Notes: a model not told the origin generated them from the sequence alone. DNA of 64,000 nucleotides from Gammaproteobacteria bacterium (GCA_027296625.1 JAPUIX010000170.1:10559-74558), one strand, 5' to 3'. Positions 38,742-54,517 are shown, counted from the first letter of the stretch. Numbers and translations are program-made.

Positions 38742-39749
38742 TTAGTTGTCTGCACTTGGGGACGTATCTTTGGACGGCTTTTCACGGCGTAGCCACAGAC
38801 GCTTCCCCTCCGCAATTTGCCAGGATAGCAGGCCCGGCAATCCTAACAGTAGTTCGCGTACCCGCTTTGTCAATGACAGTGCCAGTGAGATATCAGGTGT
38901 GATCCCGAGCAAGCTGCCAAGAAAAATGTAACCGCCTTCCTGCACGCCCAGAGCCCCCGGGATTGCGAACCCGGCTGCTCGGATGGCTTGACCAAGGCTT
39001 TCCAGCAACAGCGCTTCCATCAATGATACCGGTCTGCCGAGGAAATACATTGCCAGCCAAACTTCGCCCACACCGAGAAACCAGCCTAACAATCGCCAGA
39101 TGCAAACGGTGAGAATCGTTCGGTCTTGTCGATAGAGGTCGACGATCGCGCTATCGAGTGCCTTCGGATCCCCAAGCGACGATATCCAGTCGCGATCACC
39201 GACGACTACTTTCAATACGCGTACCAGGACTGTAAAGAGACCCCGCTGTTGCGCGTAGAAAAATCCCCAGGTTGCAAGTAATGAGATGAGTAGTGCGCCA
39301 AGTACAGCGTTGACAGCCAGCTGCTCACTAAATATTGTCAGCAACATACCAAGACCAACGCCCGTGAATATGATTTGAGTTAAGATCGCTGCGGTGAGAT
39401 CCACCACGACGCTGGCACCTGCCGTAACACCTGGGACACCAAAGTGCATAAGCAGTCGTGCCTTGAGCACATCGCCCCCTATCTGGGCGGCCGGTAGCAA
39501 GCCGTTGACTGATTCACCCACCCAACGAGCCCATAGCAGCCTGTGAAACCGTGGCCGTGTCGGTTCAATCAGGCGGCTCCATGCGACCGCATCCGCCCAC
39601 ATCGGCACCAGGTGAAAGAGTGTCACGACAAGAAGCCCCCAGCCGGCAACCGCAAGCGTAGCAGCAACCTCTGACACACCCTGGTAGCTGATAATGCCAA
39701 CGAATAGTGCAAGTCCCGCAATCCAGGCGATATAGGCGGTGATTTTCAC
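38742..39749 (-). CDS. hpnL: HpnL-type membrane protein (UPF0104 / lysyl-PG-synthase TM, flippase-like family)
   Basis: 335 aa with about 8 TM helices and the LLPAAQIGGDVLKARLL block. Lies between hpnA and the phosphonate genes. Confidence 0.55.
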   Translation of the reverse strand: MKITAYIAWIAGLALFVGIISYQGVSEVAATLAVAGWGLLVVTLFHLVPMWADAVAWSRLIEPTRPRFHRLLWARWVGESVNGLLPAAQIGGDVLKARLLMHFGVPGVTAGASVVVDLTAAILTQIIFTGVGLGMLLTIFSEQLAVNAVLGALLISLLATWGFFYAQQRGLFTVLVRVLKVVVGDRDWISSLGDPKALDSAIVDLYRQDRTILTVCIWRLLGWFLGVGEVWLAMYFLGRPVSLMEALLLESLGQAIRAAGFAIPGALGVQEGGYIFLGSLLGITPDISLALSLTKRVRELLLGLPGLLSWQIAEGKRLWLRREKPSKDTSPSADN

Positions 39750-39955
39750 GGATCGTTATCCAACGTTAAGACACGAGCAGAAACAATGGTGGCGTGCTTT
39801 CGATTGACACATTGGACCTTAGCTGCTCTTAGTATGCTTACTCTGACTCCAGCAACTTAAAATACCATGCTCGCGGTTTTTCTTATCCAGTGCAAACCGC
39901 TGGGCAGTATACGTAGCCGTGATTCGACTTATGAGTGATGTGGCCGGTGATGTAA

Positions 39956-40945
39956 TCAGCAGTAACCGTGACTGCGAAACCATTCCATGGCGTCTCGCAG
40001 GGCTTCTCTGATCGGTCGTGGTTGATACCCGAGCTCCCGCTGTGCTTTATCACTGCTGAAGAACATCATTTTTCTAGACATCCGCACACCATCAACTGTC
40101 ACGCGCGGCTCGCTGCCGCCTGTTACCTTTGCCCATGCTTCCGAGAAATATGCGATGGGCAACAATGCAGTATGGGGCAACCGGATTCTGGGCGGGGCGT
40201 GTCCAGTCAACGAGGCGATTTCGTGCAGGATTTCTTTAAGCGTCATATTGTATCCGCCCAAGATGTAACGCTCGCCTGTTTTCCCGTGCTGGTAGGCCAA
40301 GAGATGGCCCGCAGCAACATCATCGACATGCGCGAGGTTAAGTCCTGTATCAACATAGGCCGGCATACGATCGGTTACTGCATCCAGAATCATTCGACCT
40401 GTCGGCGTTGGTTTGATGTCCCTCGGTCCTACAGGCGCCGATGGATTTACAACGACCGCCGGCAGCCCCTCATCTTTCACTAATCGATGCACCTCCGCCT
40501 CAGCCAGAAACTTAGAGCGTTTGTAGTGACCAATCATGTCTTCGACAGACACAGGTGTTGTTTCATCGGCGGGACTGCCATCTGGATTGAGACCTAAAGT
40601 TGCCACGCTGCTCGTGTACACAATTCGCTCGATGCCGGCGTTGAGGGCGGCAAGCATGACGTTGCGTGTGCCAGTGACGTTCGCCTCATACAATTCTTCT
40701 GGCCTGCTTGCCCAGAGGCGGTAGTCAGCTGCCACATGGAACAGGACGGTGCATGTTAAAAGGGCACGCTCTAGTGATGGGCGATCGGTGAGATCGCCTT
40801 CCGCCACATCGATGCGCAGACCGTTAAGATTTCTCAGATCGCTGGTGGGGCGTACGAGTGCTCGCACCTGGTGCCCGGCATCTGACAGGGCGCGTACGAC
40901 GGCTGAGCCGACAAAACCGGTTGCTCCCGTGATTAGGGTTGTCAT
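39956..40945 (-). CDS. hpnA: hopanoid-associated NAD-dependent sugar epimerase/reductase
   Basis: MTTLITGATGFVGSAVVRAL Rossmann fold and YxxxK (YKRSK). The start lies 1 nt after the hpnN stop. Confidence 0.8.
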   Translation of the reverse strand: MTTLITGATGFVGSAVVRALSDAGHQVRALVRPTSDLRNLNGLRIDVAEGDLTDRPSLERALLTCTVLFHVAADYRLWASRPEELYEANVTGTRNVMLAALNAGIERIVYTSSVATLGLNPDGSPADETTPVSVEDMIGHYKRSKFLAEAEVHRLVKDEGLPAVVVNPSAPVGPRDIKPTPTGRMILDAVTDRMPAYVDTGLNLAHVDDVAAGHLLAYQHGKTGERYILGGYNMTLKEILHEIASLTGHAPPRIRLPHTALLPIAYFSEAWAKVTGGSEPRVTVDGVRMSRKMMFFSSDKAQRELGYQPRPIREALRDAMEWFRSHGYC

Positions 40946-40946
40946 G

Positions 40947-43616
40947 CTACAGACTCGTGGGTTCAGATACGGCCCCGGTGCGGCCGGTAGCGAGCAGAGC
41001 AGGAAGTACCACGAGCGTGCAGACAAGGGTGAAGGCTACGCCTAACGCAAGCAGTTTTCCCATGCTGGCCATTCCTTGATGAGGCGCAAAGGCCAGGTTG
41101 CTAAAGCCAACAATGGTGGTCAAGGCACTGAAGAATACGGCACGCGCTGAGCTGGTCGCAAGTAACACGCCGTCTTTGGGCGGTGCAGTGCGGAAACGGT
41201 GCACCATGTGGATACCGCTATCCACGCCGATCCCCAAAAGCAGCGGCAGCGCGATGATATTGGCGAAATTAAACGGTATATCAAGCACCACGCTCGCCGC
41301 GGCGGTGAAGACGCCTGCGAGTAGGAGCGGGAGCAGGACGAAAACTGCATCAATCTTTCTATCCAATAGCAGGACCAGTAATAACGCGATGACAAAAAGC
41401 GCAGATAGAAATGCCTGCTGGAACGCGGACACGACCGCATCCCCGGCTTCCAGATTGATAACCGGTGGTCCGGTAAAGTCCGGAGCGATTGTCCGCAATT
41501 CGCTAACAAATCGTCTCAGAGCGCCATTGTCCTCTAAGTTCTCCCTAGGAAATACCTCAATTAGATACTGTCCACCGGGTGTAACCCAGCGCTCAATGAA
41601 TTCCAGTGGCAGATCCCGGAAAGCCACGGGCTTAGCACGGAGTGCCTCTTGCAATGCCTGTAAGCGTCCGGGAAGGGTGCTGACAAGACTTTCCTGTAAT
41701 CGCGCCAAGAGTTGAGTACGTGCATCCGCGTCTAGGTCTTCTAACCGTTCGAAAAAGCGCTGCAGGGTGTCATTGAGTGATTTCGCTTGACGGGTGATGG
41801 ATTCGTCAGGGCGGGCCTCAATGAGCTTATTGAGCGTGTGATGAAACTCGCGTAATGCTTCTGCTTGCTCGATAGCACTGGGTAACTCTTGGTTGTCTGT
41901 GGGCTGCAGTGTGGGACCAAGAATCAGCGTCATATCATCTATAAGGAGCAATTTCTCATCCTGATCCGTCGGAATGAAACTATCCACTGTGACAACCTTA
42001 TCGACGACCGACAGTTTTTTGAGTTTATCTTTGGTGCGTTTCGCATCACGATGATTCTTTGCCAACAACACACTCCGCCAAGGAGACGTGTCTTTGTCTT
42101 TCAACAACTCTCGATAGGTGATGACTGACTCGGTCTCGGGATCCTTAAGGTTCAACGTATTGGGATCGAATGTCACATATGGAAGTAAAAATAGAGACCC
42201 CAGGCCCAAGAATAAGGTGATGCTCACGATTATCCGCGCGTGCCTTACGGGGAAATTCAACAGTTTGGGATGTGCTGATGAGAACGTACGCCGTGGCTGT
42301 TGCGGCGCGAGTGAGAGCCGCGTAAGGCTCAGCAAGGCGGGGAGTAAACTAAGACACAAACCTAAGCTGATGAACATGCCTGTGCCTGCGATCAAGCCGA
42401 GTTCCGCCACGCCGACATAGCCTGTGGGAATGAAGGCGTAGAACCCAACCGCCGTAGTCAGCGCAGCAAGCAGCAGCGCGCTGCCGATCTGGCGTACCAC
42501 GGTATGCAATGCGGCGGCATGATCCCCGTGTTCTTGCAATAGCCCTCGGTAGCGGAGATTGAAGTGGATGCAGAAATCGACCCCTAAACTGGGATAGAGC
42601 ACGGCAAATGCGATGGATATGAGGTTTAATTCGCCGACAGCCACTGTCGCAAAGCCGGCTGTATAGATAAGGCCACAGATAAGCGTGTACAGCGTGATCA
42701 GTACAAGTCGCATTGAGCCGAGGCCAATCCACAGTACGATGGTAATCATGGCAAGCGCCAGAACGGCCGCCACTGCAGTCGCGCGGATTGCACTCATCAG
42801 CTCCTCGTGAGCTAGAGGTGTATCCCCAGTCAGGCGTACGCGGATGCCGTTCTCCGGGGTCATTCCCAAGTCTGCACTGAGGGCCCGTATGGCATTGACT
42901 GCCGGCTCTGCAGGGAGCAGTTGGCTGAAATCGAGCTCAGGTTGAACGATGATGAATTGCCGGTATTCTCTTGGGTCAGTGTCCCCCCCTGTCATCACGT
43001 CTTGCCAGGATAATCGATATCGTCGTGTTTGAAGTGCTGCATCCAAGGCATCGCGAATGCGCTCGTATACCGTACCAAGTTCAACGTGTATGCCATCAAC
43101 TAGCGCGCGGGTTGCATCATTGAGCATCGAAAACAGGCCACGCAGGCTCTGATCATTACTGAGATTCGAAAGGAACGGTTGTACCATCGCAAGGTTGTCA
43201 GTGAGGTCTTCAAGTTCTGAAGATTCTAAGTACAAGAGCCCATTGGCTCGAAAGAACGACAGCCCATTGCGGTAATAAACGGATTTAAACAGGCCGGATT
43301 CTTGTTTTAGCCGCTCTGTAATTAAGACAGCAGCATCATGGGCCTCGTCCGCCGTGTCCGCATCGACCACAATGAGGATTGTGTCGACCTGTTGGGGGAA
43401 CTCGCGTTTGTACGCCGAGTATGTCTGTCGCCATGGCAGTTCTTCAGCCAGCAACTCGGCAGTATCTGTGTTAATGGCAAGGTGTTCGACCGTGTAGCCT
43501 AAAATGTAGATTGCAGCAACTGTCGCCACCGTCACAACCCAGATCGCCCCGCGCTGGACGCTGTTCACCCAGAAGGTAAGTGCGTCGTTTGCGTATCGGT
43601 GAAGGGGGGCGCGCAT
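40947..43616 (-). CDS. hpnN: RND/MMPL-family hopanoid transporter
   Basis: 889 aa with two 6-TM bundles and two periplasmic loops, HpnN-like throughout. Confidence 0.8.
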   Translation of the reverse strand: MRAPLHRYANDALTFWVNSVQRGAIWVVTVATVAAIYILGYTVEHLAINTDTAELLAEELPWRQTYSAYKREFPQQVDTILIVVDADTADEAHDAAVLITERLKQESGLFKSVYYRNGLSFFRANGLLYLESSELEDLTDNLAMVQPFLSNLSNDQSLRGLFSMLNDATRALVDGIHVELGTVYERIRDALDAALQTRRYRLSWQDVMTGGDTDPREYRQFIIVQPELDFSQLLPAEPAVNAIRALSADLGMTPENGIRVRLTGDTPLAHEELMSAIRATAVAAVLALAMITIVLWIGLGSMRLVLITLYTLICGLIYTAGFATVAVGELNLISIAFAVLYPSLGVDFCIHFNLRYRGLLQEHGDHAAALHTVVRQIGSALLLAALTTAVGFYAFIPTGYVGVAELGLIAGTGMFISLGLCLSLLPALLSLTRLSLAPQQPRRTFSSAHPKLLNFPVRHARIIVSITLFLGLGSLFLLPYVTFDPNTLNLKDPETESVITYRELLKDKDTSPWRSVLLAKNHRDAKRTKDKLKKLSVVDKVVTVDSFIPTDQDEKLLLIDDMTLILGPTLQPTDNQELPSAIEQAEALREFHHTLNKLIEARPDESITRQAKSLNDTLQRFFERLEDLDADARTQLLARLQESLVSTLPGRLQALQEALRAKPVAFRDLPLEFIERWVTPGGQYLIEVFPRENLEDNGALRRFVSELRTIAPDFTGPPVINLEAGDAVVSAFQQAFLSALFVIALLLVLLLDRKIDAVFVLLPLLLAGVFTAAASVVLDIPFNFANIIALPLLLGIGVDSGIHMVHRFRTAPPKDGVLLATSSARAVFFSALTTIVGFSNLAFAPHQGMASMGKLLALGVAFTLVCTLVVLPALLATGRTGAVSEPTSL

Positions 43617-43844
43617 ATTTAATTTTGCCCTGTCAAGAACTCTCGGGTTCTGAATATTTTAAATTTGTGCAGGAATTATCACTGCAGCCGAAAGGTTAAG
43701 GTATTAAATAAAGCGAAGGGATGGCGCTGTCGTATATTCACGGCCGTGGTTAGCGCAGTGCAAATTCGCAGAATAGCTGCAATCCGGCCAGCTGTGGTCA
43801 TTGGATTTTTCGCGTATCCGATGGGCCATCGTGTAGAGGATTGT

Positions 43845-44606
43845 TTAAACGCGAAAGACGTAGGTTTTACCCGGTTCTCTCTCGCAATCGGGGGGATAGC
43901 TTCTTCGTTTGTCCGCATAGTAGATGGCCCGGTGTTCACCTTCAGACAAACGGTTGTAAGTAACATACAGAACGCGTCTCGGTTTGTCCGTAAGGTTAGG
44001 ACCCGATCGGTGTGGCGTATAGGAATCAAAGAAGACGGCATCGCCTGGACTCATCGGATATGGAACGTAGCGCACTTCATTGTCGTCTTCCAAAGGATGC
44101 CACTTTTCACCAATGAGGCCCTTTTTGTGGTGGCCTGCAGCCAATTCTAAACAACCATTTTCGGGCGTTGATTCATCGATACTGACAAGCGCGGTAATGT
44201 GGAGCTTTGCATAGGTGTCCCATCCGGCCTGAATGTCCTGGTGAGCCTTGAAGCCATCACCGCCGGACATCTTGAAATTGATCTTATCTTTAAATAGCAC
44301 GGCTGGTTCTCCAAACAGTTCGGAGACGATGCCGAACATCTTGTCCATATTGAACAGTTTCTCGAACCCAGCGTGATACGGGACAAAATCTTCGACCCGC
44401 GAGAGGATACGCTTGTGAGGTTCAAGCTTGCTCTGTTCGAAATACATCATGTATTTACCAGGGACTTCAGGGAAGGACGCCACTTCTTCAGTCCATTGCG
44501 TTATGTTGTGTAACTCCTCAAGCTCACAGAGCCTCCTGATAATCAGGAAGCCATCGCGATCAAAATCATTCAATTGTTTGTCTGATAAGTAGCCACTCTT
44601 TTGCAT
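43845..44606 (-). CDS. phytanoyl-CoA dioxygenase (PhyH)-family Fe(II)/2-oxoglutarate oxygenase
   Basis: 253 aa. FDRDGFLIIRR N-terminus, HxD (KAHQD), and distal His/Arg (YTPHRSGPN). Confidence 0.75.
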   Translation of the reverse strand: MQKSGYLSDKQLNDFDRDGFLIIRRLCELEELHNITQWTEEVASFPEVPGKYMMYFEQSKLEPHKRILSRVEDFVPYHAGFEKLFNMDKMFGIVSELFGEPAVLFKDKINFKMSGGDGFKAHQDIQAGWDTYAKLHITALVSIDESTPENGCLELAAGHHKKGLIGEKWHPLEDDNEVRYVPYPMSPGDAVFFDSYTPHRSGPNLTDKPRRVLYVTYNRLSEGEHRAIYYADKRRSYPPDCEREPGKTYVFRV

Positions 44607-44767
44607 GATGCACCCCTATCGGGTTTTGTGAATGTATGACATCATTCCGTTCATATCTTGGACGGTTTTTACATGTGGCTTTGAGGCGTTTTCGTGGACC
44701 AATTTTACCAATCTTGTGAAGACGAATGTTTTGATGTATCGCCCCTCATCAAAGTCTTGCGCGATCG

Positions 44768-45478
44768 CTAAATGTTGAGCAACGAAGGACCTGCAAGGCG
44801 AGCGACTTTGCCTAAAGTCATTTGCGCTTGGCGGAAACAGTTCCCTAGGCGGATAACCGGCAATAACTCTGTGGGGCGTCTCAGGAGCCCGGCAAGGAGC
44901 CTCAGTCGTTGCACCTGGCCATCCTGATCGATTGCCGCGGTGACACAGTCGGGTATCGTGATATCGGCTGTGTCAACGATGGCTCGGATCACGATGCAAG
45001 GGACGCCGGCGCTGCGGGCCGCTTCGGCCACCGCAGCACTTTCCATGTCAGTGGCGACGGCGCTGCTCCGCACGAAGAGAGCCGATTTCTCAGCTGGTGT
45101 TGCCAGTACTTTGGTGCTTTCAATGAGCGTTCCCACCTGGATGCAAAGCTCGTCCTGCAAGCACTTAGAGAGACGCGCGTGCCAATCGGCATCAACAGCG
45201 TATTTTTTATTGTCCTCTGCCAAAATCATTTCCGGTAGCACGAGCGCACCCGGGGACAGATCGCTGGCGAGCCCGCCGGCGCTGCCCCAGCTTGCCAATG
45301 CCGTTGCGCCGAGTGCCAGTAATCGTTCCGCGCCACGGCGCGTTCGCTCAGCGCCTAGGCCAGCGACTTGGACTAAGACATCACCTCCAAGTTTGGCCGG
45401 ATCCCCGGTGGGTATGGGTCGGCCGGTGAGACAGCAGGCCTCGTCGGGCAAGGCCGCGATGACGCCCAGACAGGTCAA
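44768..45478 (-). CDS. hpnG: adenosylhopane nucleosidase (PNP/UDP phosphorylase family)
   Basis: GVIAALPDEA, GLGAERT, and ATDMESAAVA blocks. Immediately downstream of shc. Confidence 0.8.
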   Translation of the reverse strand: MTCLGVIAALPDEACCLTGRPIPTGDPAKLGGDVLVQVAGLGAERTRRGAERLLALGATALASWGSAGGLASDLSPGALVLPEMILAEDNKKYAVDADWHARLSKCLQDELCIQVGTLIESTKVLATPAEKSALFVRSSAVATDMESAAVAEAARSAGVPCIVIRAIVDTADITIPDCVTAAIDQDGQVQRLRLLAGLLRRPTELLPVIRLGNCFRQAQMTLGKVARLAGPSLLNI

Positions 45479-45483
45479 GCTCG

Positions 45484-47460
45484 TTATCGTTGTTTCAGAT
45501 TACGGTAGCGCGCGAGCGCCCAGAGTGGAAAGTACTTGGTATAACCGTGGTATCTCAGGAAAAACACCCGCGGAAAGCCGGGGGCGGTGGAACACGGGTC
45601 ATGCCACAGACCGTCCGCTCCCTGGGTCCGCATAAGGCATTCAACGCCGCGCCGCACAGCGCCTGAGTGCACCTGTCCTGCAGCCATCAGCGCGAGCAGG
45701 GCCCAGGCCGTCTGGAAAGGCGTACTGGCGTGATCCCTGCCGGCCTTGGCAGGATCAAAATAGGTGTCATTGCCCTCACCCCAACCGCCGTCGGGGTGCT
45801 GAACGCTGGTGAGCCACGCTGCAGCACGCTGGATGTAGGGCTCGCGCGGGGAAACGCCCGCGATCTCCAGTGCTGCCAGCACGGACCACGTACCATAGAT
45901 GTAATTGGTTCCCCAGCGGCCGAACCACGAACCGTCGGGCTCCTGTTCTTCCCGCAAGTAGCGGAGCGCCTTATCGCGTGCAGCACGGTGTTCCGGCTTG
46001 TTTGCCAACGACAGCAGAACCAGACAGCGCCCCGTGATGTCGCTGGTCGGCGGGTCTAACAGCGCCCCGTGGTCAGCGAATGGAATGGCATTGAGGTAGT
46101 AGCAGGTATTGTCTGAGTCAAAGGAACCGAAGCCGCCGTTTGCAGACTGCATGCCCGCGGTCCAGTCAGCGGCCCGTTCAATGGCCTCCTGGTAACGGAG
46201 CGGGTCAGCCCGGTGCATGGCCCAGGCGACCATCGGGGTGTCGTCGAGATCCGGGTAATACGTGTTCTGAAATTGAAAGGCCCATCCGCCCCCTTCAAGC
46301 TCCGGATGATTTTCACGCCAGTCCCCTGGTTCATCAGCCAGTTGGTGCTCGGCAAGCCAGTCCAGTGCTTGCGTAAGCTCCTCTGGGGGGTCGCCGGGGG
46401 ACGTTTCTGCCACCGCATAGGCAGCAAGGGCCGTATCCCAGATGGGCGATACACAGGGCTGGCAGTAGGCCGACGTGTCGCCGATGACCAGCAAGTTTCT
46501 AATCGCTTGTTTGGTCTCGACCCGATACGGATGATCCTCGGGGTAGCCCAAGAGTGCGAGCACCTCGTAGGCGTTGACGATGGCGGGAAATATCCCGCCC
46601 AGACCCCCCGTGCCGTTAAGCCGGGCTGTGACCCATGTCTCTGCTCTTTTAATGGCGCGCTTGCGAATCCAGCTTGGGATGAGCGGCTCGAGCGCCCGGG
46701 GCACGCGATCCAAAATGAGAAACACAGAGCCAAGTGCCGAGTTCGCCCGAAAATAGTGCCTCTCTTCAAAAGGTGGTGTGGTGAAGAGTTCCGGAATGTC
46801 CACACCTTTAGGATTCGCGGCCCGTGGCTTCAGGCTGCAAAGGATAGAAAGCGGCACCATGACCGTGCGGGACCAATAGGAAATCTTGCTAATGTGAAAT
46901 GGAGCCCAGCGTGGCAGCAGCATGTGCTCCACCGGGACAAACGGTACACCCCGCCAGGGGATCTGACCAAACAACGCCAACGCAATACGGGTGAAGACGT
47001 TGCTATGGGCGGCACCGCCATGGTCCAATATCGCCTGCTGGGCCTTTTCCATATGCGGTGCGTTGGGATCATCCCCAGCGAGTTTTAAGGCGTAGTACGC
47101 CTTGACCGAACAACTCAAATCAAAGTCAGCATCAAGATAGAGTGGCCAGCCGCCGTGATCGGCCTGATGGGCGCGAAGATAGTTAGCAATCTTACTCTCG
47201 AGCCCCTCATCGACCTCATCCATGAAATGTGTCATTAAGATATATTCGGCAGGTATCGTACAGTCTGCCTCTAGTTCATAACACCAGTAACCTTTGGCGT
47301 GCTGGTGTGCCAACAAAGCATCTCTTGCCCGGGCAACGGCCAAATCCAGCTCGTCCACTGCCGATCTGAAGGCGATTTCAGCCGGGTAGCTGCTCGCCTC
47401 AGCATCAGTGAGTTTATATCGTGGTTGCATCAGCATCGACATCATCCCCTCATTAAGCAC
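45484..47460 (-). CDS. shc: squalene-hopene cyclase
   Basis: DxDD motif (YYPDLDDTPMV), repeated QW motifs, and GGWGE blocks. Confidence 0.95.
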   Translation of the reverse strand: MLNEGMMSMLMQPRYKLTDAEASSYPAEIAFRSAVDELDLAVARARDALLAHQHAKGYWCYELEADCTIPAEYILMTHFMDEVDEGLESKIANYLRAHQADHGGWPLYLDADFDLSCSVKAYYALKLAGDDPNAPHMEKAQQAILDHGGAAHSNVFTRIALALFGQIPWRGVPFVPVEHMLLPRWAPFHISKISYWSRTVMVPLSILCSLKPRAANPKGVDIPELFTTPPFEERHYFRANSALGSVFLILDRVPRALEPLIPSWIRKRAIKRAETWVTARLNGTGGLGGIFPAIVNAYEVLALLGYPEDHPYRVETKQAIRNLLVIGDTSAYCQPCVSPIWDTALAAYAVAETSPGDPPEELTQALDWLAEHQLADEPGDWRENHPELEGGGWAFQFQNTYYPDLDDTPMVAWAMHRADPLRYQEAIERAADWTAGMQSANGGFGSFDSDNTCYYLNAIPFADHGALLDPPTSDITGRCLVLLSLANKPEHRAARDKALRYLREEQEPDGSWFGRWGTNYIYGTWSVLAALEIAGVSPREPYIQRAAAWLTSVQHPDGGWGEGNDTYFDPAKAGRDHASTPFQTAWALLALMAAGQVHSGAVRRGVECLMRTQGADGLWHDPCSTAPGFPRVFFLRYHGYTKYFPLWALARYRNLKQR

Positions 47461-47598
47461 GCAAAATACCGTTAAGTGGTCAAAACTCTCTGTTAGTGAC
47501 CTGCTTGCGGGCTTTCAGTGTTAGCTGGATTTGTTATGTTTCCCGGGCGGATTGGACGACAGGTATAAAGCATTCGTCTGCGTCCTCCGCTGCGCTCA

Positions 47599-48675
47599 TC
47601 ATACTTGGATCCGGGCATTGTTTAGTATTCCGCTGAGTTTCTCATGAATGGCACCCACGGGTAAACCCTTTGACGTCAAGGAAAACAAAAGTTTCAGGAG
47701 TTTGTCACTGCCCGCAGTAAGGTTCGTTACCACAATGGTGCCTTTCACACTGCGTCGAGAGATTTTGACCTCTTGACCCGCGCTGAAGTTGCGGTGGCGG
47801 TTAATCTTTTGCAACGTCAGGATGGCCATCCCAAGCGCCCACAGGCAGAAACGCCTTATACCTCGCTCGTGTTGTGGAATGACCAAGGTATACGTCAGTG
47901 CATTGTGCAAATGGGCGCGGGCCAGGCCGATGAGCTGCGCAAGGCCCTCAATAAAGCCGTCATCTCCCTTGCCCGGGGTAAGGTCTGTAAGATCAAATCC
48001 CAAATTATAGAAGACATCCCGCGGCAACCAGCAGGCACCACGTTTGCGATCTTCCCAGATGTCTTTAAGAATGTTCGTCATCTGCAAACCCTGCCCGAAA
48101 GAAACAGCGAGTGGTATCAATTGTTCTCGATTTTTATTGATTTCATCGGAATAATCGCAAAACAGCTCCGTCAACATTTCACCGACCACACCCGCAACGT
48201 AATAGCAATACGTGTCCATATCGGACAGGTCTTTCAGGCCGTCCAACGTTTCGTGTTCTTGGTAACGTGCCATGCCTTCCGCCATGATGCGAATACAGCG
48301 CTCAAGGGCCCTGTGTTGATTCGTATTAAAGCTGTGGGTTATCCGGATGACGCGCGTCGTATTCTTGACAAGATCCCGTTCAGCATCCAAGGCCTTCTCA
48401 GATAAAAGCGGCTTTAGTTCTTGGGCAAAATCGTTTGCGGACGCATTGCCGGCGACGACGTTAATAAATCGATCTGACCACTGCCGCTTCTGTTTCGATG
48501 TCAAAGCATTGTCGTCTTCGATGGTGTCAGCAATGCGACAGAGCAGGTAAGCGTTGCTAACGATCCGGGAGAGTTCTGGAGGCAATTGTGGAATGGTGAG
48601 CGCAAAGGTCCGTGAGACACCCTGAAGAACGTACTCTTGGTAGGTTTCATCCTGCGCGCTCGGCTGCGTAGTCAT
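47599..48675 (-). CDS. sqs: squalene synthase (single-enzyme farnesyl-diphosphate farnesyltransferase type)
   Basis: SRTFALTIPQLP, Asp-rich CRIADTIEDD, YCYYVAGVVGEMLTELF, and NILKDIWED. The tracked ORF extends to 48726; MTTQPSA is the preferred start. Confidence 0.8.
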   Translation of the reverse strand: MTTQPSAQDETYQEYVLQGVSRTFALTIPQLPPELSRIVSNAYLLCRIADTIEDDNALTSKQKRQWSDRFINVVAGNASANDFAQELKPLLSEKALDAERDLVKNTTRVIRITHSFNTNQHRALERCIRIMAEGMARYQEHETLDGLKDLSDMDTYCYYVAGVVGEMLTELFCDYSDEINKNREQLIPLAVSFGQGLQMTNILKDIWEDRKRGACWLPRDVFYNLGFDLTDLTPGKGDDGFIEGLAQLIGLARAHLHNALTYTLVIPQHERGIRRFCLWALGMAILTLQKINRHRNFSAGQEVKISRRSVKGTIVVTNLTAGSDKLLKLLFSLTSKGLPVGAIHEKLSGILNNARIQV

Positions 48676-48888
48676 TTCGCGAATTACTCCCCTATAAGAC
48701 ACTGTATCGCCCGCGGCTTGCAGCAATAGATTAGCACGGTATCGTAAAGTTCAGGCCTTAGCTCTGAGCGCGAAGCTCTTATTATCAGGATAAAAAAGAC
48801 CAAAGCAATCAAACCAGAGGGGCATTCCCCATTTTCAGTGATATTTAGTGGACTTCGATGTGCGACAATATGGGACTTAGCTTAGGGA

Positions 48889-50034
48889 GTGATGAGAATG
48901 AAAAAGATTAAGGTAGCATTAGTTGGTGTCGGTAACTGTGCAAGTTCCCTCATTCAGGGCCTCGAGTTTTACAAGGGCAGTAAAGCAAAAGAATTTTCCG
49001 GCCTCATGCACCCCAGGATCGGATTGTGGGGTGTCAGCGACATTGAAATTGTGGCCGCTTTTGACATCGATCACCGTAAGGTCGGCAAGCCAGTGGAAGA
49101 AGCCATCTTTGCTAAACCGAACTGTACCCTGGTTTTCCAGAAAGCCTTGCCGGTCTCCGGGGTCAAGGTGCAGATGGGACCGATCCTCGATGGGGTGGCG
49201 GGGCACATGGCTGATTATCCGGACGATTTAGCTTTCCGCCCTGCTGACATCGAGCCTGTAGACATTGTCGATGCCCTCAGGGGGAGTAAAGCCGAGGTGT
49301 TGGTTTGCTATCTGCCGGTCGGCTCGGAGGAGGCGGTGCGCCACTACGCACAGGCCTGCCTGGATGCCGGTGTGGCCATGATCAACTGTATGCCGGTGTT
49401 CATTGCCTCCAATCCTGAATGGGCCAAGAAGTTCCAGGCAGCGGGGCTACCGATCGTGGGGGACGATATCAAGAGCCAGGTCGGCGCTACCATCGTTCAT
49501 CGCACATTGACGCGCTTGTTCGGCGACCGTGGTGTCAGTCTCGATCGGACGTATCAACTGAATACGGGAGGCAATACAGACTTCCTCAATATGTTGGCGC
49601 TTGAACGCTTGAAGTCCAAGAAAATATCCAAGACCGAGTCCGTGCAGTCGCAACTCGACGAACGGCTGGCTACCGGTGATATCCATATCGGTCCGTCGGA
49701 TTATGTGCAGTGGCAGGGAGATAATAAGGTGGCCTTCATACGCATGGAGGGGCGTGGCTTCGGCAATGCACCGATTGAACTTGAACTCAGGCTGTCGGTG
49801 CAGGATTCTCCTAACAGCGCCGGTGTCGTCATCGATGCAATCCGCTGTGCCAAACTGGGGTTGCAGCGTGGCCTTAGCGGACCGCTGGAGGCGGTTTCCG
49901 CCTACTACATGAAGAGCCCACCACGGCAAATGCGTGATTCGGTGGCCTATGAGGCATGTAATGCTTTTATTAATGGTACTGATAGCAACGAAAAGGTATC
50001 CGGACAAGACGATCAAGCCGGTATGATCGAATAA
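48889..50034 (+). CDS. ino1: inositol-3-phosphate synthase (MIPS)
   Basis: KIKVALVGVGNCASSLIQGLEFYK Rossmann fold and archaeal/bacterial short MIPS architecture (SKKISKTESV, DSPNSAGVVIDAIRC). Confidence 0.85.
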   Translation: MMRMKKIKVALVGVGNCASSLIQGLEFYKGSKAKEFSGLMHPRIGLWGVSDIEIVAAFDIDHRKVGKPVEEAIFAKPNCTLVFQKALPVSGVKVQMGPILDGVAGHMADYPDDLAFRPADIEPVDIVDALRGSKAEVLVCYLPVGSEEAVRHYAQACLDAGVAMINCMPVFIASNPEWAKKFQAAGLPIVGDDIKSQVGATIVHRTLTRLFGDRGVSLDRTYQLNTGGNTDFLNMLALERLKSKKISKTESVQSQLDERLATGDIHIGPSDYVQWQGDNKVAFIRMEGRGFGNAPIELELRLSVQDSPNSAGVVIDAIRCAKLGLQRGLSGPLEAVSAYYMKSPPRQMRDSVAYEACNAFINGTDSNEKVSGQDDQAGMIE

Positions 50035-50086
50035 ACTTTCTCACCGGTAAATGCAACGGGGACCATGCGATCAAGCTATCTGAACC

Positions 50087-50899
50087 ATGGACCACGCTTG
50101 GACAGAACAGCTGATCGAGCTCCACCGCCTGGTACGTTTGGCGGTCATCACTCGCAGTCGGGAGGGAACCTGTGGAACGAACGCCAAAGGGGATGTGGTC
50201 AAGGTTTTCGATCTGGTCGCAAATGATGCTGCGCTGAAATACCTGCAAACATCAGCAGTATCGCTTCTTGTTGAATCTGAAGAGTCCGAGCCACAAACAG
50301 TTGGTACCGGCACACCTGCTCACCGTCTGATCCTGGATCCTGTCGATGGTTCTGACAACTGGTCACGGCGATTGCCGTTATCTGCATTGTCCTGCGCGGT
50401 GTTGCCTATTGATGCACCATTAAAGCCTGAGTCCGTTATCGCATCGATTGTTGGTCCGCTCGATCAGGAAGTCCCACTGGTCGCGCAACAAAGATCTGGC
50501 GCATGGTCTGACATGATCCGGCTTCAGACCTCAGACGTGCATTGTCTTACGGATGCCGTGATCTCAATTGAACTCAACCACTATGCACCTGCCATGAATC
50601 TGGCACGCATGATGGCTGATGCCAGAGGTATACGCTGCTACGGTAGCGCAGCCTGTGCAATTACCTTCGTTGCCTCGGGAATAACGGATGCCCATATCGA
50701 TATACGCAGCAGACTGACCCCGGAAAGCTATCTTGCCGCAGCATGTTTGCTGCTGGAAGCTGGGGGATGCATCACCGGTCTCGATGGTGCGTCGTTACCA
50801 GCCGCATCTGGCTTGACTGATGGCATCAGTTTAATCGCTGCGGCGAACCAGGCACTGTGTGACGAAATTGTAGAACGCTTGGGCAATGATGGAGGTTGA
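50087..50899 (+). CDS. inositol-monophosphatase-family phosphatase
   Basis: ESEESE metal site, LDPVDGSDNW motif, and the C-terminal GSAACAITFVASGITDA block. Confidence 0.75.
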   Translation: MDHAWTEQLIELHRLVRLAVITRSREGTCGTNAKGDVVKVFDLVANDAALKYLQTSAVSLLVESEESEPQTVGTGTPAHRLILDPVDGSDNWSRRLPLSALSCAVLPIDAPLKPESVIASIVGPLDQEVPLVAQQRSGAWSDMIRLQTSDVHCLTDAVISIELNHYAPAMNLARMMADARGIRCYGSAACAITFVASGITDAHIDIRSRLTPESYLAAACLLLEAGGCITGLDGASLPAASGLTDGISLIAAANQALCDEIVERLGNDGG

Positions 50900-52253
50900 C
50901 AGTCAAATGGAGGCACCCCAGGTTGCAGTCATTCTTGCCGCCGGCTCAGGATCACGGCTGTACCCGACTGCAAACACACCGAAACCCTTGATAAAAGTGT
51001 TGGGCCTGTCACTTGCCGAGCGCGTCATCAGCACCTTGTGTCAAGCAGTCAACATTCGGCATTTTATTGTCGTCCTTGGCTTTGAAGCCGAGCTAGTCAA
51101 GGAACATTTTATTGATATTGCTCGTCGTCGTGGTGTGACGATTGAATTTTGTATGGCAGAGAACTGGCTGCGTGGTAATGGTTCTAGTGCACTTGCAGCC
51201 AAGGGACATACTGGCGCTGCCCCGTTCTTTCTGGTCATGAGTGATCACCTGTTTGATCCAGCTATCCCGCAGGCGCTAGCCCAAAATCCACCTGCCCCAG
51301 GCACAATCTGCCTGGCAGTGGATCATGACAAGACTGGCATATTCGATCTCGATGACGTGACACGGGTACGGATCACGAACAATCGCATCAAAGCGATCTA
51401 CAAACACCTTGAGCAATGGGATGCCGGTGATACGGGGGTTTTTCTTTGTACGCTTGGTCTGTTTGACGGGCTTGAGGCGGCCGTCTCAAGGGGCAGGTAT
51501 GGACTCTCCGATGCCCTGCATGAATTAGCGCAAGAGGGCCGGGCAGGTACTGTCGATGTGACCGGACAATCATGGCTCGATGTTGACACACCGGAAGCCT
51601 TTCATGAGGCAGAGCACCGACTATTGCAGGAGTTGGGTGGTAAGCCCAGCGATGGTCCGGTTGCACGCCATCTCAACCGACCGCTTTCCCGCTGGATAAC
51701 AGGATACCTGGTCCGCACCCCTGTGACACCAAACCTGATTTCTTTCGCTTCCTGGTTGTTGTCATGCTTTGCCGCGATCTTGTTTATGATCGGTGGCTAT
51801 CCGGCATTGGCACTCGGCGGGCTCGTCGCACAATTTGCCTCGATCATTGATGGTTCTGATGGCGAAGTTGCGCGGCTAAAACATTCGGAGAGTAAAGCGG
51901 GTGCCTGGTTTGACGCGGTCCTCGATCGCTATGCCGACGCTTTCTTGTTGTTCGGTCTGACATGGCACGAGTTTTCTGCGAACAACACGCACCTATCCCT
52001 GGTGATTGGTTTTGCTGCGATCATCGGTTCCTATATGATCAGTTATACTGCGGATAAATATGATGGGTTAATGGCCAGGAGACTTCGGGGCGCTGTTTAT
52101 TTCAGATTGGGCCGCGACATCAGGGTATTCATAATCTTCCTTGGGGCGCTCTTCAACCAGCCACTGTTCACTTTGATTGTCATCGCACTGATCATGAATA
52201 TTGAAGTTGTCCGCCGCGTCACCGTCTGTATGCTAGAGAAACTGCCTGAATAA
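50886..52253 (+). CDS. bifunctional nucleotidyltransferase / CDP-alcohol phosphotransferase (IPCT/DIPPS type)
   Basis: N-terminal VAVILAAGSGSRLYP NTP-transferase fold. C-terminal multi-TM domain with the complete DxxDGxxAR-x8-G-xxxD-xxxD motif (DGSDGEVARLKHSESKAGAWFDAVLDRYAD). Confidence 0.75.
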   Translation: MMEVDSQMEAPQVAVILAAGSGSRLYPTANTPKPLIKVLGLSLAERVISTLCQAVNIRHFIVVLGFEAELVKEHFIDIARRRGVTIEFCMAENWLRGNGSSALAAKGHTGAAPFFLVMSDHLFDPAIPQALAQNPPAPGTICLAVDHDKTGIFDLDDVTRVRITNNRIKAIYKHLEQWDAGDTGVFLCTLGLFDGLEAAVSRGRYGLSDALHELAQEGRAGTVDVTGQSWLDVDTPEAFHEAEHRLLQELGGKPSDGPVARHLNRPLSRWITGYLVRTPVTPNLISFASWLLSCFAAILFMIGGYPALALGGLVAQFASIIDGSDGEVARLKHSESKAGAWFDAVLDRYADAFLLFGLTWHEFSANNTHLSLVIGFAAIIGSYMISYTADKYDGLMARRLRGAVYFRLGRDIRVFIIFLGALFNQPLFTLIVIALIMNIEVVRRVTVCMLEKLPE

Positions 52254-52623
52254 ACTCCGATAATCATCAAATAAGGCAAAAACTAAAAGCCTTATCGGAG
52301 CTACCCATAATGCTGGCCTGTCAACAATAACTCAAACTTCGGAGTACGTGATTGTCTACCAATTCGAAAGATCTGAAGAAAAGACTTCTATCAAAAAACT
52401 GTTTCATCAGGCGCGAAGGGGAGGCGATCATGAAATCTGGTATAGCCCTATTCTTAGGGATACATTTTATTGTCGAGGATGAAATCAAATCTAGCCATAC
52501 GGCAGAGGCTGTCCTAAAATTTGCTGGCTTAGATAAGGCGTTTTAGTTAGTAATGTCCAAGCGATTAAACAAGGTTCTCTAAGAAGGAAGGGGATGTGAC
52601 GACCGCAAAGAGAGTGTGTCCAA

Positions 52624-52794
52624 TCAATCTCGCACGGTCCGTGTGATGACGAGACCACAACGTTGACACTGTATCTTCTCGATATTGCCAGTAGTGCCAA
52701 AAGCAAAGGTGATGTCAATCACACGAAAATCGTGAATCCCTAGCCGGCAATAAAGCTGGCCAAGGAGATTCAGCAATTTGCCCTTACCCATCAT
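52624..52794 (-). other. 56-codon ORF, possibly an IS (ISL3-like) transposase N-terminal remnant
   Basis: Own translation: MMGKGKLLNLLGQLYCRLGIHDFRVIDITF...IQCQRCGLVITRTVRD*. This is only loosely reminiscent of the ISL3 zinc-ribbon N-terminus. No inverted repeats were seen. Confidence 0.2.
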
Positions 52795-53014
52795 TTAACA
52801 CTTACTTCGCTTCTGGCCCTCTCCCGTCACTGTCAACTCACCACGTGAGCTGCCTGATTATGTTGCTCCCCCTAAGGGCTGAATGCCATAGGTAAATTAA
52901 ATTTTAGTACCATTGTCAGGGTGATTGACTTTTAACAAGTGCCCTGCGCAACATTCAATCTTGACTATGTAGAAGCAAGACACGTAATAGAAAGATGTCA
53001 CACCAGGAAGAAAA

Positions 53015-53677
53015 TTGAGGGATCTGTTGACTGAGTTACCCAACAAAGAAAGCTGCAGCGCCATCCGGGCACTTGACCTGATTCCGATGGTCATAGAGGT
53101 TTCTGCCCGGGGGGAACGCACCTATGATATTTACTCTCGCCTGTTGAAGGAAAGAGTCATATTCCTGGTGGGTCCGCTTTTGGACGAGGTCGCCAATCTG
53201 GTAGTTGCACAGTTGCTTTACCTTGAATCTGAAAATCCTGACAAAGACATTCATTTTTATCTTAATTCTGCTGTCGGCTCGGTAAGTGCAGGAATGGCGG
53301 TCTATGACACCATGCAGTTCATCAGTCCAGACATCAGTACCCTGTGCATCGGTGAAGTTGCTGGCATGGGATCATTACTACTTGCGGGAGGTGCACCGGG
53401 GAAACGATATTGTCAGCCACATTCGCGGATCGTGCTGCATCAACCCCTTGGAGATATCGAGGGACAAGCCACGGACATGGCAATTCATGCAAAAGAGATC
53501 TTGAGGAACCGAAAGCAGTTAGACAAAATTCTAGCCAAACATACAGGACAAACAACGAAGCGGATCCATGCCGACACAGAGCGGGATCATTTCATGGATG
53601 GGCAAGAGGCTGTGGCGTATGGACTAATTGATGAGGTGCTTATGCAACGTATAGTTAAGGAGATAGAGAACCGATAG
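53015..53677 (+). CDS. ClpP-family protein lacking the catalytic serine (ClpR-like orphan paralog)
   Basis: Collinear with ClpP ([25 protein letters not shown]). The nucleophile motif AASMG reads VAGMG here (Gly codon GGC at 53363-53365), and SPGG reads SAVG. The catalytic His (LHQPLG) and Asp (TERDHF) are retained. Confidence 0.8.
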
Positions 53678-53720: not shown

Positions 53721-54128
53721 TTACGACTCAATGCGACCCCTCATTGCGGTGTTACCTCGAACCCAACCGGTAGCGGCATGCGTTCTAATCGTTTTGTTAA
53801 GGCTTGATGCGACTAAACCAGCTAATTCCGAAGCAGATGTCCAGATCCTGACAAGTCCATTTTCGCTGACTTTTTCGCGGAACCGGTTGAGTTTAGCCCT
53901 CGCATCGGGTTCAAGCTCGGATTTACCGGTTGGTATTTCCTTGGGTTTGCCATGACAGAACGCGAGGACAGGGATGCCTTTCTCTATCGCGTAATCGTAT
54001 TCTTTTTCTGTATACCTGATTCCTTCTGCTGAGAGTGAGCCAAATCTGCCGCTGATGATGAGAATATAGTAGTCGCTGTCATCGATTACCTTCTTGATAA
54101 ATTGAAATTGCTCCTCTGTAGATCCCAC
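53721..54128 (-). pseudogene. DUF4062-like (TIR-like fold) domain protein, apparently truncated at the N-terminus
   Basis: EEQFQFIKKVIDDSDYYILIISGRFGS...YTEKEYDYAIEKGIPVLAF...KLNRFREKV matches the central and C-terminal DUF4062 pattern. The conserved N-terminal VFISST..DL..ER block is missing, and the frame is closed by a TGA just upstream. Confidence 0.4.
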
Positions 54129-54440: not shown

Positions 54441-54517
54441 TGGTCGGGGTGACTGGATTCGAACCAGCGACCCCTGCCTCCCGAAGGCAGTGCTCTACCA
54501 GGCTGAGCTACACCCCG
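54441..54517 (-). tRNA. tRNA-Pro (anticodon CGG)
   Basis: The reverse complement folds as a cloverleaf: acceptor CGGGGTG/CACCCCG, anticodon stem CTGCC/GGCAG, loop TTCGGGA, T-loop TTCGAAT, and an encoded CCA. Confidence 0.9.

Follow-up and report, generated by a model that had tools for sequence, protein, structure and literature searches.

The bifunctional IPCT/DIPPS enzymes of hyperthermophiles belong to the route to di-myo-inositol phosphate (DIP), and in Archaeoglobus fulgidus and Thermotoga maritima the phosphatase that acts on the phosphorylated intermediate, DIPP, is supplied by the archaeal IMPase/FBPase class. In A. fulgidus and Aquifex, CDP-alcohol chemistry with a phosphorylated intermediate also yields glycero-phospho-inositol and diglycerol phosphate. 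Outside thermophiles, published IPCT/DIPPS genes come from deep-sea Thaumarchaeota and from Atribacteria; a hadal thaumarchaeal MAG carries an extra IMPase copy beside IPCT/DIPPS, transcripts were found at depths of 4000-10,500 m, and the genes were proposed to have been acquired horizontally and to yield an osmolyte or piezolyte (PMC7265257, PMC8397731, PMC10773090, bioRxiv 10.1101/536078). DIP itself, per published reports, has been measured in no non-thermophile (PMC7265257, PMC8397731). A similar gene set can also serve lipid synthesis: the MIPS-IPCT-BEPIS operon of Rhodothermus marinus converts CDP-inositol to dialkylether glycerophosphoinositol, according to the summary of Jorge et al. 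2015 in PMC4587543, and a putative CDP-inositol lipid route has been proposed for a Bacteroides vulgatus-type cluster (PMC9246714).

Layout of the cassette and identity of its genes

We analyzed a window of 64,000 nucleotides from an uncultured gammaproteobacterium whose proteome composition is that of a non-hyperthermophile. Between positions 48889 and 52253 it contains three co-directional ORFs on the plus strand, encoding a myo-inositol-3-phosphate synthase (MIPS), an IMPase-family phosphatase and a fusion of an NTP-transferase to a CDP-alcohol phosphotransferase. An earlier note on this DNA had named the same three genes, and profile matches back each identity. The matches of the trio (E-values of 1e-13 to 1e-140), together with its retention in dozens of genomes, place it far beyond chance.

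The MIPS gene (48889..50034, plus strand) likely starts at the ATG at 48898 chosen by the gene caller, giving a product of 378 amino acids. This protein matched PF01658 with 119 bits, and its full-length alignment with TIGR03450 scored 468 bits, short of the cutoff of 638. Its match to PDB 1gr0 reached 426 bits (E 1e-126), compared to 29 bits for the A. fulgidus enzyme (1u1i), and judged by these matches it is of the bacterial, Mycobacterium Ino1 type and not archaeal.

The second gene (50087..50899, plus strand; PF00459, 66 bits) encodes a divergent member of the IMPase family and a predicted DIPP phosphatase, with the previously noted DPVDGSDNW motif at aa 84-92 (nt 50336-50362). Its best NCBIfam match was the archaeal bifunctional FBPase/IMPase model NF009321 (119 bits; cutoff 264), and its closest structures were MJ0109 (1dk4), PH1897 and AF2372 (1lbv); that these belong to the archaeal IMPase/FBPase class speaks for a DIP route. 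The protein keeps FD, SEE and DPVDGSDN and lacks the canonical WD-x-AA metal motif, in whose place it carries RLTPESYLAA (nt 50711-50740), a substitution that counts against a DIP route. Among 35 cassette homologues the phosphatase motifs are at least 95% conserved: the metal-binding motifs SEE and DPxDG(S/T) are invariant, and RLTxES(Y/W)LA replaces WD-x-AA in all 35.

The stop codon of the phosphatase gene (TGA, 50897-50899) lies within the start of the fusion gene (ATG at 50886), so that the two overlap over 50886..50899 on the plus strand, exactly the 14 nt reported earlier. Such an overlap of 14 nt is usual where an IMPase-like gene precedes the fusion and recurs identically in 23 of 34 loci, with mostly 4-8 nt in the rest, and in the window's clade the fusion is translationally coupled to the IMPase-like gene.

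The fusion gene itself occupies 50886-52253 on the plus strand. Its N-terminal nucleotidyltransferase (NTase) domain (50925..51635, aa 14-250; PF00483, PF12804) is a predicted CTP:inositol-1-phosphate cytidylyltransferase (IPCT), with the G-loop LAAGSGSRL at nt 50934-50960 and a match of 69.6 bits to A. fulgidus IPCT (2xme). The motifs AAGxGxRL, KPL, GNGxS, MxDH, DTGxF and WxDVD are common to the A. fulgidus domain and conserved across 79 family members, the catalytic ones to at least 95%. Over aa 13-432 the fusion aligned end to end with the A. fulgidus IPCT/DIPPS (4mnd, E 4.9e-46), and this full-length homology to a verified enzyme supports a DIP route, as does the JGI annotation of cluster members as CDP-L-myo-inositol myo-inositolphosphotransferase. 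The best NCBIfam model was IPCT/DIPPS NF041135, matched over profile positions 3-416 of 419; the score of 259 bits fell short of the curated cutoff of 580, which is evidence against a DIP route, while the A. fulgidus enzyme reached 629 bits and passes although it lies outside the model's named order. On its sequence, then, the fusion is a member of a divergent IPCT/DIPPS subfamily. The earlier description of the cassette as hyperthermophile-style holds only in part, given its MIPS of the Mycobacterium Ino1 type and its divergent fusion below the NF041135 cutoff.

The three genes supply a predicted enzyme for each step of the known way to DIP. In the proposed pathway, MIPS would convert glucose-6-phosphate to L-myo-inositol-1-phosphate, the N-terminal domain of the fusion would join this to CTP to form CDP-inositol, the six-helix membrane domain would move the inositol-phosphate group of CDP-inositol onto a second inositol-1-phosphate to give DIPP, and the IMPase-like enzyme would strip the terminal phosphate, releasing DIP. 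In the mainly marine and deep-sea MAGs that carry this subfamily, the solute would serve in osmotic, pressure or general stress protection, and not in heat protection. Synthesis of DIP, one of two possibilities named in the earlier note, best explains the evidence as a whole, and we consider it the probable function of the cassette.

The membrane domain and its predicted acceptor

The C-terminal part of the fusion (51678..52226, plus strand, aa 265-447) is a CDP-alcohol phosphotransferase domain with six transmembrane (TM) helices, matching PF01066 over aa 281-418, and a predicted DIPP synthase. The full DxxDGxxAR...G...D...D motif claimed for it was found at aa 322-347 (nt 51849-51926) in the form DGSDGEVAR-x8-G-x3-D-x3-D, invariant across the family and with all eight catalytic residues conserved. 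Intact catalytic motifs in this and the NTase domain argue for the DIP route.

Among CDP-alcohol phosphotransferases, enzymes with a soluble acceptor have six TM helices and those with a lipid acceptor three or four more (PMC4634129). Alignments of the membrane domain with 4mnd and 4o6m both took in the last helix; the one with 4o6m ended at residue 366 of 372, beyond which the window's protein has 8 more residues, and in none of 80 homologues does the extension past the sixth helix exceed 23 residues. Six TM helices without an extension represent the soluble-acceptor architecture.

In phosphatidylinositol-phosphate (PIP) synthases, S132, R152 and R155 of Mycobacterium tuberculosis PgsA1 bind the phosphate of inositol phosphate, and R94 is conserved among enzymes that use this substrate (PMC6506517). 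Residues R348, S386, R410 and R413 of the fusion align with R94, S132, R152 and R155, respectively, show at least 95% conservation across 79 family members and occur also in A. fulgidus DIPPS (AfDIPPS); the equivalent of R195 is presumably R443 or R444. The putative acceptor-phosphate residues fall in LDRYAD (51921-51938), SYTADKYDGLM (52041-52073), GRDIR (52110-52124) and NIEVVRR (52197-52217). Both the six-TM architecture and these pocket residues favor the DIP route.

The same acceptor, fold and need for a phosphatase would also suit a prokaryotic PIP route (PMC4634129, PMC9246714), in which CDP-diacylglycerol and inositol-1-phosphate would give PIP, the IMPase-like enzyme would dephosphorylate it and the NTase domain would have a structural or regulatory role, and the membrane domain indeed scores 65-98 bits with models of archaetidylinositol-phosphate (AIP) and PIP synthases. 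We consider this very unlikely, since the DIPPS model scores higher (130 bits, compared to 98, 79 and 65 for the AIPS and PIPS models), the fusion itself argues that the NTase product is the donor, and the conservation of the NTase motifs to at least 95% indicates a domain selected as an enzyme, unlike the reduced N-terminal domain of AF2299.

The affinities of the membrane domain within the DIPPS group also bear on the DIP reading. Scored alone against NF041135, the window's domain reached 130 bits, compared to 275 for AfDIPPS and 151 for AF2299, and it is 40.6% identical to AF2299 and 33.7% to AfDIPPS; being nearer to AF2299, it counts against DIP. A neighbor-joining tree built on 197 columns of the membrane domain placed the canonical clade (77%), together with AF2299 (63%), within the environmental family; its deep nodes have 14-28% bootstrap support and its outgroup is saturated, too little to resolve orthology to the verified enzymes, which likewise weighs against DIP.

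Related loci and the hopanoid cluster

Across 80 related loci, MIPS is adjacent to the fusion in 57, and a phosphohydrolase gene is linked to it in 64, as an IMPase-like gene in 40 and a DUF4202/HD-domain gene, directly downstream of the fusion, in 24. The two types are mutually exclusive, with no locus carrying both. Interchangeable phosphohydrolases imply a phosphorylated product, and their linkage agrees with DIPP being made first and then dephosphorylated to DIP, and is at odds with inositol phosphate passing straight to a lipid. The association with both MIPS and a phosphatase partner thus adds to the case for DIP.

These counts bear on a Kennedy-like route, in which the NTase domain would make CDP-inositol and the membrane domain would move inositol phosphate to diacylglycerol, dialkylglycerol or ceramide. 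CDP-inositol has precedent as a lipid head-group donor, with MIPS and IPCT in an operon (PMC4587543, PMC9246714), and the ether inositol lipid that R. marinus makes with a similar gene set does count against DIP; moreover, the window's neighborhood is rich in membrane-lipid genes (hopanoid, phosphonate) and the fusion belongs to a divergent subfamily. A direct lipid product, however, needs no phosphatase, and here one is linked in most loci and coupled in the window's clade; six TM helices with no extension (PMC4634129) and the conserved Arg/Ser cluster for a soluble inositol-phosphate acceptor point away from a lipid, and in the precedents IPCT and transferase are separate genes, with a HAD hydrolase and not an IMPase in the Bacteroides cluster. 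We therefore regard such a route as quite unlikely.

The phosphatase requirement and six-TM architecture would fit equally well another soluble phosphodiester, whether CDP-inositol were joined to, for example, glycerol-3-phosphate to give glycero-phospho-inositol after dephosphorylation, or the NTase domain activated a non-inositol alcohol phosphate. The glycero-phospho-inositol and diglycerol phosphate of A. fulgidus and Aquifex are a precedent. The closeness of the membrane domain to AF2299, which binds CDP-glycerol (PMC4634129), also speaks for such a product. Against this, MIPS is the cassette's sole gene for substrate supply and is linked in 57 of 80 loci, with a PfkB-type kinase, possibly an inositol kinase, found beside or instead of it in six; neither a glycerol-phosphate cytidylyltransferase nor any other supply gene is recurrent among the 80 loci, and the NTase motifs match those of IPCT. 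Such a product thus appears unlikely.

MAGs of Alpha- and Gammaproteobacteria, SAR324, Nitrospinota, Binatia, ANME-1 and others, mainly from marine and deep-sea sources, carry the cassette in abundance, and equivalent database searches returned 2966 matches for the window's subfamily and 751 for hyperthermophile IPCT/DIPPS. About ten loci have IS elements at the cassette's flanks, and copies with 98-100% identity turn up in MAGs assigned to different phyla. The subfamily is large and horizontally spread, and the earlier remark that DIP synthesis would be unusual outside hot environments has been overtaken by this distribution and by the published non-thermophile genes.

In the window, the cassette adjoins a long hopanoid cluster on the minus strand (sqs, shc, hpnG, hpnN, hpnA, hpnL), in which a phosphonate pathway is embedded. 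The divergent region between sqs and MIPS measures 162 bp by longest-ORF starts or 222 bp by gene-caller starts (48676..48897), sqs starting at 48726 (TTG) or at the gene caller's ATG at 48675, close to the roughly 160-210 bp given previously. No sigma-70-like or consensus promoter match was found in this region, which is uninformative either way.

This arrangement suggested that inositol phosphate is placed on the side chain of a bacteriohopanepolyol by a cassette co-regulated with sqs and shc through a shared divergent promoter, and adjacency to the hopanoid cluster in this lineage is what favors it. Neither sqs nor shc lies within 8 kb of the fusion in any of the 80 related loci. In the nearest relatives, at 77% and 83% identity, the cassette is found next to an IS21 element, or clpP and trkHA, and the window shares no flank genes with the related loci L040, L001 and L034. 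The adjacency is thus peculiar to the window's lineage. As every objection to a lipid acceptor applies here too, from the six TM helices and the acceptor phosphate residues to the phosphatase partner, decoration of hopanoids is extremely improbable, and the earlier suggestion of a hopanoid or other lipid acceptor finds no support.

Taken alone, the window mostly calls for this correction: the genes are as they seem, and the hopanoid link is unsupported. If the solute is really made, a complete, mobile-looking DIP cassette in many non-thermophilic marine bacterial lineages would extend the few archaeal and Atribacteria reports, and DIP could then be considered for a general role in the deep biosphere, as a stress or pressure solute. 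More tentatively, DIP or a very close inositol phosphodiester may not be specific to heat at all and may be a common compatible solute or piezolyte of bacteria and archaea in cold, deep-ocean and subsurface settings, made by a mobile cassette with a distinct subfamily of the fusion and a swappable phosphatase; on this reading DUF4202, an uncharacterized domain family, would gain its first function, as a DIPP phosphatase. The subfamily also offers tractable proteins from non-hyperthermophile hosts.

Comparison with described systems

Archaea of cold, high-pressure habitats and Atribacteria are already known from published work to carry DIP genes, and the cassette is widespread in marine MAGs; in the literature on non-thermophile IPCT/DIPPS we found no description of its breadth across bacteria. 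That DIP measurements are absent from non-thermophiles counts against the DIP reading. The hadal and deep-sea Thaumarchaeota and the Atribacteria of hydrate sediments (the latter with MIPS-IPCT/DIPPS) come from cold, high-pressure habitats; like the window they carry a fused IPCT/DIPPS, and they belong to another domain or other phyla.

The R. marinus and Bacteroides clusters likewise bring together MIPS, an IPCT-like NTase and a CDP-alcohol phosphotransferase, as described in PMC4587543 and PMC9246714. Compared by these descriptions, theirs are separate genes with a lipid product and without an IMPase or HD partner (a HAD hydrolase in Bacteroides), whereas the window has fused domains, a coupled phosphatase and soluble-acceptor features. 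The PIP synthases (M. tuberculosis PgsA1, 6h53; Renibacterium salmoninarum PIPS, 5d92) share the six-TM fold, catalytic motif and acceptor residues at ~26% identity, but have no NTase domain and use a lipidic donor, CDP-DAG.

Among solved membrane domains, that of A. fulgidus AF2299 (4o6m, 4q7c) comes closest (140 bits), and both proteins carry SYT-x-DK, RD-x-R and a C-terminal N-x-E-x-x-RR. The N-terminal domain of AF2299 is reduced and fails to align with the window's NTase domain; it was crystallized with CDP-glycerol, and its role is disputed (PMC4634129 vs PMC8633023).

The hyperthermophile IPCT/DIPPS (A. fulgidus AF0263, 4mnd; Thermococcales, NF041135) have the same two domains fused in the same order. 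The full catalytic motifs, the six TM helices, the conserved acceptor residues and the association with MIPS and a phosphatase are likewise common to both. The window's fusion is 32% identical to the A. fulgidus enzyme and below the model's cutoff (259 compared to 580 bits), and its cassette differs in its Mycobacterium-type MIPS, its phosphatase with an altered metal motif and its non-hyperthermophile gammaproteobacterial host.

The inositol cassette and its surroundings

The three plus-strand genes lie at the positions assigned by the earlier note, and domain matches upheld their identities: an inositol-3-phosphate synthase (MIPS, 48889-50034; PF01658 at 119 bits and a full-length alignment to TIGR03450 at 468 bits), an IMPase-family protein (50087-50899; PF00459, 66 bits) with DPVDGSDNW at amino acids 84-92, and a fusion protein (50886-52253) in which a nucleotidyltransferase (NTase) domain (PF00483/PF12804, amino acids 14-250) precedes a CDP-alcohol phosphotransferase domain (PF01066). 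The motif DGSDGEVAR-x8-G-x3-D-x3-D is complete in the fusion (amino acids 322-347), and the reported 14-nt overlap is real, with the TGA of the phosphatase gene ending 14 nt beyond the ATG of the fusion gene. In NCBI the fusion is called just 'sugar phosphate nucleotidyltransferase', and cluster members are named CDP-L-myo-inositol myo-inositolphosphotransferase by JGI.

The description of these genes as a hyperthermophile-style cassette held only in part. The MIPS belongs to the Mycobacterium Ino1 type (426 bits to 1gr0 versus 29 bits to the archaeal 1u1i), and the phosphatase, whose closest structures are the archaeal IMPase/FBPases MJ0109, PH1897 and AF2372, constitutes a subfamily of its own, in which FD, SEE and DPVDGSDN are invariant and an invariant RLTxES(Y/W)LA stands in place of WD-x-AA. 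The cassette is thus a mosaic rather than a block taken from a hyperthermophile. Proteins at least 90% identical to those of the window come from MAGs labelled Gammaproteobacteria, and the IVYWREL fraction of 0.406 (17 kaa) corresponds, by the temperature formula for this index, to growth at ~46 °C with an error of roughly 10 °C, a coarse index that argues against a hyperthermophilic host and is compatible with a moderate thermophile.

Divergence from a squalene synthase gene (sqs, PF00494) was confirmed, with a squalene-hopene cyclase gene (shc; TIGR01507, 833 bits) also upstream. The divergent gap, put at ~160-210 bp in the earlier note, measures 162-222 bp depending on the choice of start codons, and as for its promoter, promoter and terminator scans gave nothing above shuffled expectation. 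On the minus strand, sqs heads a co-directional run (33909-48726) of shc, hpnG, a PhyH-family dioxygenase gene (43845-44606, between hpnN and hpnG; best match methylphosphonate hydroxylase), hpnN, hpnA and hpnL, contiguous with a stand-alone NTP-transferase gene (37900-38652) and genes for a PEP mutase::NTase fusion (36214-37899), phosphonopyruvate decarboxylase (35030-36217) and 2-AEP aminotransferase (33909-35090). Together, these genes suggest that a nucleotide-activated phosphonate is attached as head group to a hopanoid or other membrane lipid. Among NCBIfam models, the stand-alone NTP-transferase (250 aa, adjoining hpnL) best matches the IPCT half of IPCT/DIPPS, at 76 bits, and it shares 26-28% identity with the N-domains of the cassette fusions; given its neighbours, it is more likely phosphonate-related.

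Downstream of the cassette come a 760-bp spacer (52254-53014), a clpP paralogue (53015-53677, plus strand), a DUF4062 ORF (53721-54128, minus strand; no NCBIfam match), tRNA-Pro(CGG) (54441-54517, minus strand), and the core block ispB-rplU-rpmA-obg-proB. The spacer (43% GC against a window average of 54%) holds no Rfam match, no ORF of at least 80 aa and no convincing terminator, and the tRNA was the sole RNA element that Rfam recovered at gathering thresholds from the whole window. Together, the spacer and the clpP/DUF4062 segment have a GC content of 43-49% (47-49% in the segment with the DUF4062 ORF and the tRNA), and the cassette one of 52-54%. A tRNA-anchored island was considered and is not supported, since no att-like direct repeats were found between 47400 and 54700 and the GC content of the cassette matches that of the window.

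The ClpP paralogue, near which no clpX was found, reads GEVAGMG where the catalytic GQAASMG is expected, a serine-to-glycine change, and keeps its histidine and aspartate. The same substitution occurs in a ClpP encoded beside the cassette of L085, the locus of an 83%-identity fusion relative (7831-8490, minus strand), and so is maintained. At the same position, ClpP is normal in a second locus (L025) and a truncated remnant in a third (L005).

Conservation of the neighbourhood and alternating phosphohydrolases

We collected 80 loci with fusion relatives at 46-83% identity and searched them with the window's proteins. MIPS adjoins the fusion in 57 of them, and an IMPase-like gene lies between the two in 40, essentially the clade at 60% identity or above, joined by a few loci at 52-54%. 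No sqs or shc homologue occurs within 8 kb of the fusion in any of the 80 loci, and the nearest relatives sit in other contexts, one (77% identity) directly after an IS21 transposase pair and one (83%) before clpP and trkH/trkA. Only in the window's own lineage, then, does the cassette adjoin sqs, which removes the sole evidence offered for a hopanoid as acceptor of the inositol phosphate and leaves that proposal of the earlier note barely credible.

Unbiased clustering of the ORFs around the fusion in all 80 loci brought out one further recurrent partner, a gene of ~200 aa that immediately follows the fusion, in the same orientation, in 24 loci (e.g., L049 7790-8401, L054 3275-3850 and L067 2541-3131). 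These loci belong to a more distant clade, represented among others by MAGs of ANME-1, Nitrospira, Acidobacteriota, Actinomycetota and Bacteroidota. The encoded protein is a DUF4202 member (PF13875, 67-76 bits) that also scores above threshold for an HD phosphohydrolase domain and displays an H...HD...D motif pattern; a search for solved relatives found none. Its 24 loci and the 40 with the IMPase-like gene do not overlap at all. Two unrelated phosphohydrolase families thus alternate at one operon position, suggesting that the product of the fusion carries a phosphate to be removed, and this alternation is the strongest contextual argument for a phosphorylated product. [quoted passage not shown]

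The predicted acceptor pocket and product

Both domains of the fusion are covered by sequence matches to solved homologues: amino acids 13-432 align with the crystallised Archaeoglobus fulgidus IPCT/DIPPS (4mnd, E = 4.9e-46) and the N-domain with the isolated A. fulgidus IPCT (2xme). The count of six transmembrane helices comes from alignment to solved structures, a Kyte-Doolittle scan giving merged segments from which helices are not countable by themselves. We aligned 79 family members with the A. fulgidus enzyme (AfDIPPS), the A. fulgidus CDP-alcohol phosphotransferase AF2299 and the Mycobacterium tuberculosis PIP synthase PgsA1. Conservation reaches at least 95% across the 79 members in the NTase and catalytic motifs, and likewise in LDRYAD, SYTADKYDGLM, GRD(V/I)R and a C-terminal N-x-E-x-x-RR. 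Across the 80 homologues, the extension past the sixth helix never exceeds 23 residues. Residue roles were taken from work on PIP synthases and mapped by alignment: in PgsA1, S132, R155, R195 and the R152 backbone hold the acceptor's phosphate, and R94 is conserved in inositol-phosphate-using enzymes (PMC6506517; PMC4634129). S132, R155, R152 and R94 correspond to S386, R413, R410 and R348 of the window protein, and the counterpart of R195 presumably lies within the C-terminal RR. These features point to a soluble, phosphorylated acceptor. As the NTase is fused and conserved, the likely donor is CDP-inositol, and the enzyme would convert CDP-inositol and inositol-1-phosphate to DIPP.

A PIP synthase could share such a pocket, yet on that reading the conserved NTase would have no function, and we regard it as very improbable. 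Transfer of inositol phosphate onto a lipid, the earlier note's alternative to DIP, has a genuine precedent in Rhodothermus marinus, where an ether inositol lipid is made by an operon encoding MIPS, IPCT and BEPIS, the last a transferase with a gene of its own (PMC4587543), and similar chemistry has been proposed in Bacteroides for a cluster whose NTase, transferase and HAD hydrolase are likewise encoded separately (PMC9246714). Such chemistry, however, has no step for a phosphatase and would presumably work without a pocket that binds the acceptor's phosphate, and with BEPIS compared by gene set rather than by sequence, we rank this route low and consider it improbable.

The architecture and the phosphatase would fit a different soluble phosphodiester equally well, for example one with glycerol-3-phosphate, and the similarity to AF2299 slightly favours it; but the only supply genes that recur are those for inositol phosphate, namely MIPS and, by its DPTGCGD motif only, a PfkB/ribokinase-like kinase in six loci, making such a product unlikely. 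The kinase gene lies just upstream of the fusion in L003 (7030-7938), L004 (6979-7938), L023 (6112-7197) and L075 (5481-6374 and 7045-7887) and downstream in L072 (3805-4719) and L074 (4539-5438). L003 has the kinase and no MIPS. The enzyme may be an inositol kinase that supplies inositol phosphate.

On homology and context, which form its whole basis, synthesis of DIP is the best-supported mechanism, and we consider it fairly probable. DIP is negatively charged, and K+ usually serves as its counterion. In L085, two genes for K+ uptake, trkH and trkA (9559-12407), lie ~1.8 kb downstream of the cassette, past clpP and genes for a TPR protein and a methyltransferase; their nearness, clear in this locus only, is suggestive of K+ balancing.

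Relation to verified enzymes and spread among genomes

The curated IPCT/DIPPS model has a cutoff of 580 bits. The verified A. fulgidus DIPPS scores 629 bits against it at full length and 275 bits for the membrane domain only, compared with 259 bits, below the cutoff, and 130 bits for the window fusion; the membrane domain of AF2299, whose role is unsettled across published sources, scores 151 bits. The membrane domain of the window protein is 40.6% identical to AF2299 and 33.7% to AfDIPPS. A bootstrapped neighbour-joining tree placed the canonical enzymes (77%) and AF2299 (63%) on a long branch among short-branched environmental sequences, with deep nodes at 14-28% and a saturated outgroup, and for these reasons we make no claim of orthology with the verified enzymes. 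The window protein thus falls in a divergent and as yet uncharacterised subfamily that has the IPCT/DIPPS architecture.

A search with the window protein gave 2966 matches among the best 8000 candidates, the top 120 at 67% identity or above, and one with the A. fulgidus enzyme gave 751 among its best 8000. The hosts of the fusion family span many bacterial phyla and include closed chromosomes. Transposase-like ORFs were noted by eye beside the cassette in about ten loci (L004, 10030-11274; L005, L018, L022, L026-L028, L029, L041, L049 and L083), with a Pfam assignment only for the IS21 pair of L083 (3613-5900) and the others classed by eye only as IS3-, IS256- and IS1595-type; their presence within a few kb is consistent with horizontal spread. 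The fusions of L024 and L026/L027 (fusion gene 8001-9341) are 98-100% identical, with identical flanking gene coordinates, under Alphaproteobacteria and Thermodesulfobacteriota labels (one Thermodesulfobacteriota-labelled MAG being a closed 1.7-Mb chromosome), reflecting either very recent transfer or taxonomic mislabelling.

The DIP pathway and its fused enzyme are textbook features of hyperthermophiles. The earlier note's view that DIP would be unusual outside hot environments is weakened by the wide distribution of the cassette and by prior literature on non-thermophiles: fused IPCT/DIPPS has been described at the gene level in deep-sea and hadal Thaumarchaeota and hydrate-sediment Atribacteria, and a hadal thaumarchaeal MAG carries an extra IMPase gene nearby, with transcripts at 4-10.5 km depth (PMC7265257; PMC8397731; PMC10773090; bioRxiv 10.1101/536078). 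To these reports, the present analysis adds the breadth of the cassette's distribution.
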